Virus record (IMG/VR): IMGVR_UViG_2030936005_000025
Span: 200,204 to 264,203 of that record
Origin: a virus
Lineage: Duplodnaviria > Caudoviricetes
DNA length: 64,000 nt
Strand: one strand, 5' to 3'
In this document: positions 210 to 1,120 of the stretch, in pieces
Layout of the letters: each line of letters begins with the position of its first letter
Numbering within the stretch: the stretch's first letter is position 1
Position numbers and translations under genes: made by a program
Notes under the pieces: generated by a model
Seen by the model: only the letters and a program-made list of their open reading frames with translations
Databases searched by the model: none
Told to the model about the DNA's origin: nothing

Positions 210-692
210 ATGGATTCTATTGGGATGTTACTGTTGGCATTAATTGCAGGTGTCGGTATTGGTTCTGCGATCACTATTTTGATTCAAAAGCGTCGCGACG
301 CTGGAACGGTTGGTACCAATCCAGAACTGCACGCGTATATCACTTCTGCCGAGGCTAAACTTCAGGCTCAAGTTGATGAGCTTAAAACAAAACTCCTACC
401 TGCCGATACACAAGAGAAACTCAAAGGTATTGGCGATGGGTTACTGTCAACGATCAAAGATAAACTGCTTGACGATCTCTCTGGTTTGAGACTCAATGGC
501 GAATCACATCTTCAGCAAATCGAAGATATCGTGAAACGCATTGAAGGTCTGACTGAAGCTGAACTCGTCAAACTGCATCTGGAAAAAGAAACACCGCCCG
601 CTGATCCAGTGTTGGCTGTCTCTCCTTCCGATCCACAGACAGTAGTCTCTTCTGAACCAGCGATTCCTGCTGATCAGAATAAAGTCGTTTAA
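210..692 (+). CDS. Hypothetical protein with N-terminal membrane anchor and coiled region
   Basis: 160-aa ORF; hydrophobic MLLLALIAGVGIGSAITILI followed by KRR; AAGG upstream of ATG. Confidence 0.8.
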   Translation: MDSIGMLLLALIAGVGIGSAITILIQKRRDAGTVGTNPELHAYITSAEAKLQAQVDELKTKLLPADTQEKLKGIGDGLLSTIKDKLLDDLSGLRLNGESHLQQIEDIVKRIEGLTEAELVKLHLEKETPPADPVLAVSPSDPQTVVSSEPAIPADQNKVV

Positions 693-698
693 GTATTT

Positions 699-774
699 GC
701 TTCCATAGTTCAGTCGGCAGAACGGTCGCCTGTTAAGCGATATGTCGCAGGTTCGAGTCCTGCTGGAAGCGCCA
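699..774 (+). tRNA. trnN: tRNA-Asn (GTT)
   Basis: 76 nt; acceptor GCTTCCA/TGGAAGC; anticodon arm GTCGC-CTGTTAA-GCGAT; T-loop TTCGAGT; discriminator G and encoded CCA. Confidence 0.97.
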
Positions 775-800
775 ATTTACATTCACATCTGCCAGTTACT

Positions 801-904
801 GCGGTCGTGTCTTCAGAGGCACCGTAAATGTATGATAGTGGATGATTAGTTTCTACCACTGGATATCTTTACAATAGTTAGGTTAAATCCCTAAGGCCGC
901 GCCA
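801..904 (+). ncRNA. tRNA-like RNA A (long irregular helix instead of an anticodon arm)
   Basis: Acceptor GCGGTC(801-806)/GGCCGC(895-900) then G-CCA; hairpin GTGTCT-TCAG-AGGCAC; long arm GTAAA…AGTGG/CCACT…TTTAC; T-arm TTAGG-TTAAATC-CCTAA. Confidence 0.7.
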
Positions 905-913
905 GATTTATAT

Positions 914-1047
914 GAGGGTCGTGTCGTGGGACACAAGTTCAGTTATGCTCTAGCGATCTAAGATCGTGAACCCGTTAGCGGTGAAGATAGACAACTCTAC
1001 TTCAACTGTACTGAATGATAAGCCGAGTTCGACTCTCGGGATCCTCT
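914..1047 (+). ncRNA. tRNA-like RNA B (multibranched domain instead of an anticodon arm)
   Basis: Acceptor GAGGGTC(914-920)/GATCCTC(1040-1046); hairpin GTGTC-GTGG-GACAC; helix GTTCAGT/ACTGAAT enclosing sub-hairpins; T-arm CCGAG-TTCGACT-CTCGG; no encoded CCA. Confidence 0.75.
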
Positions 1048-1120
1048 ATCAACTTCATAATGTCATGAAGATCCGTACCTACCGTTTTGGTTTTTGGTAC
1101 CCAATCCATGAGGAAGTAAT

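Follow-up and report, generated by a model that had tools for sequence, protein, structure and literature searches.

Stable phage RNAs that resemble tRNAs but do not decode have been known since the 1970s, when species 1 and 2 of phage T4 came to light, and they have remained a puzzle for 50 years. Species 1 (139 nt) and species 2 (119 nt) are encoded by rnaC and rnaD, non-tRNA genes that lie directly after tRNA genes, just as the element described here does. The function of rnaC and rnaD is still unknown (PMC3014915, PMC9697503). In E. coli, a tRNA whose anticodon stem-loop has been swapped for a foreign hairpin is processed precisely and becomes nuclease-resistant (PMC3753655). Among the determinants of cleavage by bacterial RNase P are the interaction of RCCA (purine 73 plus CCA) with the RNase P RNA and the N-1 residue (PMC12710915).

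Here we analysed a stretch of 64,000 nt (the window) from the 264,203-bp genome of a virus of the Caudoviricetes. The only canonical tRNA found by ARAGORN in this genome, tRNA-Asn, is the first gene of an RNA cluster, and the gene that follows it, called here element A, has the ends of a tRNA but not its anticodon arm. Judged by its sequence, element A is a real, conserved RNA gene and represents an uncatalogued family of tRNA-framed phage RNAs, which we propose to be stable.

Architecture and conservation of element A

The features of the locus are given below (positions in the window).

210-689, plus strand: upstream gene of 160 codons, in the cluster inside which the window starts
699-774, plus strand: tRNA-Asn (GUU), called by ARAGORN and scoring 71 bits with the Rfam tRNA model
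775-800: spacer of 26 nt between tRNA-Asn and element A
801-904, plus strand: element A, the whole tRNA-framed RNA gene of 104 nt (fold; covariance model R1, 119.8 bits, E 1e-25)
801-806, plus strand: 5' strand of the acceptor stem, pairing with 895-900 (6 bp, including U805-G896)
807-822, plus strand: D-arm-like hairpin of 6 bp with the 4-nt loop UCAG, abutting the acceptor
823, plus strand: unpaired C between the D-like hairpin and the long helix
824-872, plus strand: long irregular helix (49 nt, 17 bp) in the position of the anticodon arm
839-862, plus strand: near-invariant 24-nt tip UGGAUGAUUAGUUUCUACCACUGG, a candidate functional module according to the alignments
842-877, plus strand: open frame of 11 codons, MISFYHWISLQ and a stop, inside the helix and probably incidental
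873-877, plus strand: 5-nt linker A-R-U-A-G in the position of the tRNA variable loop
878-894, plus strand: T-arm with the 5-bp stem UUAGG/CCUAA and the 7-nt loop UUAAAUC (fold, covariation)
895-900, plus strand: 3' strand of the acceptor, followed by the discriminator G901 and the encoded CCA (902-904)

The initial annotation had placed a 104-nt element 26 nt after tRNA-Asn and had ascribed to it a 6-bp acceptor, a G-CCA end, a 5-bp T-stem with the loop TTAAATC (A at position 56), a 6-bp/4-nt hairpin abutting the acceptor without a linker, and an irregular helix at 824-872 in place of the anticodon arm. All of these parts were recovered in the sequence and in the predicted fold, for which the minimum-free-energy and centroid structures coincide (-33.1 kcal/mol, z = -3.23); none of 200 shuffles was as stable. 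The long helix has 3 internal loops and is closed by the hexaloop UUAGUU. The T-loop reads U54 U55 A56 A57 A58, with A in place of the tRNA C56, and the acceptor/T stack comprises 11 bp vs. the canonical 12. The D-like hairpin lacks the 8/9 linker as well as G18 G19, and the loops of the homologues read UCAG, UUAG, UUA, GUAG or NUUGAA. The linkers of the four-way junction (0, 1, 5 and 0 nt) are close to those of tRNA (2, 1, 4-5 and 0 nt), so that the topology is that of a tRNA cloverleaf in which the anticodon arm has been exchanged and the D-arm cut down to a tetraloop hairpin. No notable open reading frame crossing element A was found, and the neighbouring proteins matched only PHROGs families of unknown function.

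Homologues were searched for with BLAST against 50,697 phage records and with the covariance model R1, which was built from three copies. Full-length element A is present in the window, in Erwinia phage AH04, Pantoea phage Survivor, Shewanella phage SXP01 and Klebsiella phage N1M2, and in L052, an uncultured 260-kb viral contig. The model found one copy in each of six other phage sequences, with E from 1e-20 to 1e-26. Edwardsiella phage pEt-SU carries a 57-nt copy lacking exactly the long helix (alignment columns 25-71). Whole-record searches with the model gave one copy of element A per genome (AH04, Survivor, pEt-SU and the genome of the window) and none in the related Kosakonia phage Kc263 and Aeromonas phage D3. 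The seven copies all come from one group of phages of 250-276 kb.

The short copy of pEt-SU (L001:1177-1233) is a natural insert-less control. Two TCGCAGT direct repeats mark the exact limits of the deletion that removed its whole central helix, the acceptor stem is identical to that of the N1M2 copy, the D-like hairpin and the T-arm are nearly so, and the tail reads G-CCU. The remaining frame still folds well (z = -3.0).

Scanning viral contigs with a 14-mer gave more than 116 loci, of which all but L052 are chance matches, and longer tip patterns retrieved from the viral contigs L052 only. In metagenome contigs the longer patterns gave three AT-rich matches, all due to chance, and in 185,579 genomes the tip pattern gave a single chance match, in a Bacteroidales MAG, the module being found in no bacterial RNA. 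No further copies of the tip motif were found in the phage's own genome. Searches for more phages by way of the neighbouring proteins yielded one relative (L132), which has neither tRNAs nor element A.

The six full-length copies and the insert-less copy of pEt-SU were aligned with the model as a guide, and the paired regions are free of gaps in an ordinary MAFFT alignment as well. Standard pairs occupy 96.4% of the cells in this 7-sequence alignment, as compared with 38-48% after a shift of the partners by 1-3 columns. Covariation among homologues, by which the initial annotation had wanted its reading to be judged, is clearly there: 18 of the 34 pairs have changed on both sides, and the observed values were reached in 0 of 500 shuffles. 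The acceptor helix is 100% paired, with compensatory changes at 4 of 6 pairs; the D-like hairpin is 95% paired (4 of 6), the T-arm 97% (3 of 5), and the long helix 95%, with 7 compensatory pairs. The many G-U pairs identify the plus strand as that of the RNA.

The conservation is inverted when compared to that of a tRNA, in that the stems of the frame vary while the tip is nearly fixed. Over columns 39-62, the six full copies have only two variable sites, both in AH04, and one of the two changes restores a base pair. In the acceptor stem, C2-G71 and G3-C70 are the only fixed pairs, with either G or U at position 1. The acceptor, D-like and T stems thus drift freely, and no tRNA identity set is kept. 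What does persist in the frame is the discriminator G73 (7/7 copies), the linker A-R-U-A-G, which is fixed even in the pEt-SU copy, and positions 54, 55 and 58 of the T-loop, the loop of Survivor being different. CCA is encoded in 4/7 copies, but not in those of N1M2, SXP01 and pEt-SU, the other three reading ACG, ACC and CCU, and the base at -1 is U in 6/7 (U800 in the window) and C in 1/7. The tip does not resemble an anticodon loop. It is constrained in sequence, paired G-C positions included; according to the fold, the loops and internal loops expose ~14 nt, and half of the invariant stretch is base-paired in the helix. This combination of a drifting frame with a strongly conserved tip suggests that the insert does the work and that the tRNA frame carries it.

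Searches against known RNAs, likewise proposed in the initial annotation, left element A without a match. ARAGORN called neither a tRNA nor a tmRNA in it by default, in intron mode, at the 80% threshold or in tmRNA mode, and no canonical tRNA emerged after removal of an intron; the overlapping calls made at the locus in mitochondrial mode are meaningless. None of the 4227 families of Rfam release 15 matched element A at the gathering score or at E <= 10, the tRNA model RF00005 included (E <= 10), and in the window and four related loci the same searches (gathering score, E <= 10) found true tRNAs only. Among the features of a tRNA, element A has the acceptor, the T-arm with U54 U55 and A58, the discriminator and CCA, but a 5-bp anticodon stem with a 7-nt loop is absent in all six full-length copies. 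It is annotated in none of the public phage records that hold copies.

The tRNA slot and its other RNAs

The tRNA slot that holds element A is always the same one and lies upstream of a glutaredoxin gene. The order of genes in the slot is Asn-A-B in the window, Cys-A-C in AH04, Asn-Ser-C-B-A in Survivor, Asn-C-A-D-Arg in N1M2, Tyr-C-miniA-B in pEt-SU and C-Ser-D-A-B in L052, where B, C and D denote the following RNAs.

914-1047, plus strand: element B, a tRNA-framed RNA (fold; homologues aligned)
L124:1372-1465 (N1M2), L001:~1085-1165 (pEt-SU), L002:~1395-1470 (Survivor), L003:~1310-1410 (AH04) and L052:1-90: element C, an unannotated long hairpin
L124:1591-1678 (N1M2), L052:193-279 and L005:1955-2039 (SXP01): element D, a tRNA-framed RNA

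In the frame of element B, the 7-bp acceptor has no encoded CCA, a 5-bp/4-nt hairpin abuts it, and the T-arm, CCGAG-UUCGACU-CUCGG, is canonical. Its branched insert of ~80 nt is unlike that of element A. Element B is 94% identical in pEt-SU, occurs in L052 as well, and is diverged in Survivor. It is element B, not A, that ARAGORN at the 80% threshold forces into a 'tRNA-Gln(CUG)' with a 61-nt intron. Element C, with the core GGGUACAACAGGCCAGGG...CCUGGGAUCCACUUCCCA, is another conserved RNA of the slot, missing from the window; no Rfam family matched it at E <= 1. Element D combines a 6-bp acceptor like that of element A with a canonical T-arm and an inner hairpin capped by UACG, and has no evident anticodon arm; with the Rfam tRNA model it reaches 28.3 bits, just below the cut-off of 29. 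The occurrence of one frame with differing inserts (A, B and D) in a single slot argues for a modular design.

The true tRNAs of the slot change between phages (Asn, Tyr, Asp, Ser, Cys, Arg, Met). In a very close relative (contigs of runs X3 and X4), the end of the upstream gene is kept, element B is ~98% identical to that of the window, and 305 other letters replace tRNA-Asn and element A (window 673-906). Both the varying order and content and this replacement indicate that the slot behaves as a cassette site. Small protein genes follow element A and element B.

Several other features of the slot were observed. AH04 (L003:1112-1197) and SXP01 (L005:2155-2241) have 86-nt class II tRNAs with a long variable arm and the Cys anticodon GCA, a shape unusual for tRNA-Cys; U73 was read in that of AH04, and the position corresponds to that of the class II tRNA-Tyr(GUA) of pEt-SU (L001:987-1072). 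Two conserved hairpins, CUUCAU-AAUGUC-AUGAAG and then a U-rich one, are located in the leader of the downstream 107-codon gene (window 1053-1117 and L005:1497-1563 in SXP01). The first of them could instead pair with the ribosome-binding region AUGAGGAAG and may thus be a translational switch. In SXP01, the ~115 nt between tRNA-Asn and tRNA-Ser (L005:1290-1405) are unannotated and G+C-rich and contain inverted repeats.

A possible natural tRNA scaffold and its rivals

We propose, tentatively and as a reading that may well give way to another, that element A is a stable, non-decoding RNA of ~104 nt built on a natural 'tRNA scaffold' and matured by the host, with the tip as its working part. In structure, the acceptor, D- and T-arms are kept, and the pEt-SU copy indicates that the insert is separable from them. 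As to the course of events, we infer transcription, processing, stability and partner binding. Element A would be transcribed on the plus strand jointly with tRNA-Asn and element B. RNase P would cut its 5' end, taking its cues from the acceptor/T-arm stack together with U(-1) and the G73-CCA tail, while exonucleases or a CCA-adding enzyme would make its 3' end. Since U is preferred at -1 by bacterial RNase P, tRNA-type maturation appears plausible from G73, CCA and U(-1), although the 11-bp stack and the missing D/T-loop elbow make efficient handling by RNase P and the CCA-adding enzyme less than certain. Family searches found no CCA-adding enzyme, RtcB or Ro/TROVE in the phage genome, and neither of two families of T4-type RNA ligases matched there, the search with PF09511 being uninformative, as it matched no control genome either. 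Having neither a CCA-adding enzyme nor RtcB of its own, the phage probably depends on host enzymes.

The frame (acceptor, D-like hairpin and T-arm) would serve for excision and for protection from decay, while the invariant 24-nt tip would most likely bind a conserved partner in a sequence-specific manner, element A acting as a small aptamer-like sponge or cofactor. The partner is, we think, more likely a protein, of host or phage, than an RNA: no antisense target beyond chance was found in the phage genome, which speaks for a protein or else a partner in the host, and the E. coli genomes searched gave no match of >=19 nt. As a counterpoint, pEt-SU keeps an intact, well-folding frame without the insert, and the frame itself could thus have a function. 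A bolder extension, possible but rather doubtful, is that these jumbo phages own a kit of tRNA-scaffolded aptamers with swappable modules A, B and D, made into stable effector RNAs by the tRNA-maturation enzymes of the host and each capturing a specific conserved factor of host or phage; the tip of element A would then be one capture site.

Among the rival explanations, the initial annotation had already suggested a decoy for anti-tRNA defences. Here the whole molecule would compete for a factor that reads the acceptor, the T-arm and the CCA end, be it a synthetase, EF-Tu, a defence toxin that cleaves tRNA or modifies its CCA, or some other sensor that binds tRNA, thereby blunting the anti-phage response or retuning translation. 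The tRNA frame with its invariant G73 and encoded CCA fits such a role, the true tRNAs of the slot turn over as expected of counter-defence tRNAs, and the frame persists insert-less in pEt-SU. Nevertheless, we regard a decoy as rather unlikely, because the conservation pattern does not favour it: without a 7-nt anticodon-like loop the target of an anticodon nuclease cannot be mimicked, the acceptor, with 4/6 covarying pairs and G or U at position 1, holds no identity set, and a decoy made of the frame only would have no need of the insert tip, where the constraint is strongest. Under the published identity rules for the synthetases of E. coli, G73 without an anticodon, G3-U70 or a long variable arm is not known to fit any of them. 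The invariance of the tip across phages of different hosts, with ~14 nt exposed, would also suit an antisense riboregulator in a tRNA-like frame, the tip (AUGAUUAGUUUCUA) pairing with a host transcript, and C4 of phages P1/P7 shows that a phage can have its antisense RNA matured by RNase P. We find this improbable, since complementarity to the phage genome is at the chance level (best score 31 vs. 27-41 in shuffles), no stretch of >=19 nt matches in either sense among 5,426 E. coli genomes, and half of the invariant stretch is paired within the helix. Element A might, at its simplest, be punctuation, i.e., an RNase P site in cis that splits a polycistronic transcript into an upstream and a downstream mRNA, the excised piece having no job. 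It does lie between protein genes that share one strand, this strand has no terminator-like site there, and the insert-less frame is kept in pEt-SU; but the true tRNA 26 nt upstream already supplies such a site, and both the 49-nt helix with its 7 compensatory pairs and the 24-nt invariant tip would be superfluous, which makes this explanation very unlikely.

There is still less to be said for a miniature tmRNA-like or peptide-coding RNA whose 11-codon frame is translated, with the CCA charged or not. In 6/6 full-length copies the AUG and the UAG of the frame are invariant, with no stop in between, and the acceptor, T-arm and CCA without an anticodon recall tmRNA. Nonetheless, columns 3/100 are G-C in 7/7 copies, so that the invariant G3-C70 replaces the alanine identity pair G3-U70, and neither the tmRNA mode of ARAGORN nor the Rfam tmRNA families gave a call. 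The first seven codons show no synonymous change save the one that restores a base pair, whereas three variable codons change at all positions and to radical residues (I/V/A/T, S/I/T, L/S); the substitutions thus follow base pairing rather than codon position, which speaks for selection at the level of RNA and not of a peptide. Moreover, UAG and the linker are kept in the pEt-SU copy, from which the frame is missing. In the full-length copies a stable helix encloses the frame, and both its ends are tied to the tRNA-like domain within 0-20 nt, a ring probably too short to thread a ribosome. Taken together, these points make a translated frame highly improbable. Finally, the location in a tRNA slot could suggest a decaying tRNA pseudogene or a true tRNA with an intron, and an intron-containing tRNA-Gln was indeed forced by ARAGORN, albeit from element B and not from A. 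We reject both and see next to no chance for either: the covariation and the invariant tip show that the structure as it stands is under purifying selection, no intron-mode call was made for element A at any threshold tried, the insert is far below the size of a group I intron, and the phage has no match to RtcB or to either RNA-ligase family, one of which (PF09511) matched no control. Other ideas, namely a CsrA-type GGA site, a kink-turn, a ToxI-like similarity, a mimic of the Asn anticodon (GUU) with G73 and a kissing contact between the tip and the T-loop, were dropped as inconsistent across homologues or with the geometry.

Comparison with known systems

The closest natural parallel is found in T4. 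Read from the sequence, the two ends of rnaC can pair into a 7-bp acceptor-like stem beside a canonical T-arm, CCGGG-UUCGAAU-CCCGG, with non-tRNA hairpins in between. Unlike element A, rnaC has no abutting D-like hairpin and no encoded CCA, and its stem contains two U-U mismatches; the frame of element A differs in turn by its 6-bp acceptor and A56. rnaD shows no clear tRNA frame (fold z = -0.8). Host range and phage family differ as well, and a search of the T4 tRNA region with the model R1 gave nothing at E <= 10. The tRNA mimicry that the initial annotation had likened to RnaC/RnaD thus stands as far as structure, covariation and the tRNA slot are concerned, whereas homology to rnaC/rnaD is found neither in sequence nor at the level of the model, so that the link is one of analogy only. 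What element A adds to the T4 case is a set of diverged, covarying homologues, a drifting frame set against an invariant module, sister RNAs and an insert-less variant. The question can be tested directly in cultured phages that carry element A (AH04, N1M2, Survivor and SXP01), and a kit of swappable modules, if true, would offer a testable model for T4 rnaC/rnaD.

The tRNA-like domain of tmRNA shares with element A the acceptor, the T-arm, CCA, the lack of an anticodon and a long helix off the junction, and it is matured by RNase P. Element A differs in having no G3-U70 and no pseudoknots, a stemmed D-arm, about 1/3 of the size and a frame without a coding signature. In C4 RNA of phages P1/P7, RNase P makes the 5' end via an acceptor-like stem, and the loops are the functional part. 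C4 RNA has no T-arm, and element A gave no match to the Rfam C4 model, nor was an antisense target found for it in the phage genome or, at >=19 nt, in the E. coli genomes. The bacterial Y RNA YrlA is alike in joining a tRNA-like module to a long protein-binding helix, but its topology is reversed, in that the Ro-binding helix is made by the ends of the RNA and the acceptor-like stem is the closed one; element A has no match to the Rfam Y RNA models, and the phage genome lacks a Ro/TROVE domain. With canonical tRNA, element A shares the four-way junction, tRNA-like linkers, the T-loop residues U54 U55 A58 and G73-CCA, while it lacks the elbow pair G18 G19/C56 and has an acceptor/T stack of 11 bp vs. 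12 or 13 bp. Its D-arm of 6 bp and 4 nt is that of tRNA-Sec, which has a 6-bp D-stem with a 4-nt loop as well as G73.

The design of element A is the same as that of the engineered tRNA scaffolds (Ponchon and Dardel; PMC3753655), where a hairpin insert replaces the anticodon stem-loop. The engineered scaffolds are man-made and keep the full tRNA frame with a 7-bp acceptor, a normal D-loop and C56, whereas element A is natural and its frame is reduced to a 6-bp acceptor, a tetraloop D-arm and A56. If element A does function as such a scaffold, this would point to a class of phage RNA effectors overlooked by annotation pipelines, and nature anticipated the tRNA-scaffold trick now used for recombinant RNA production.
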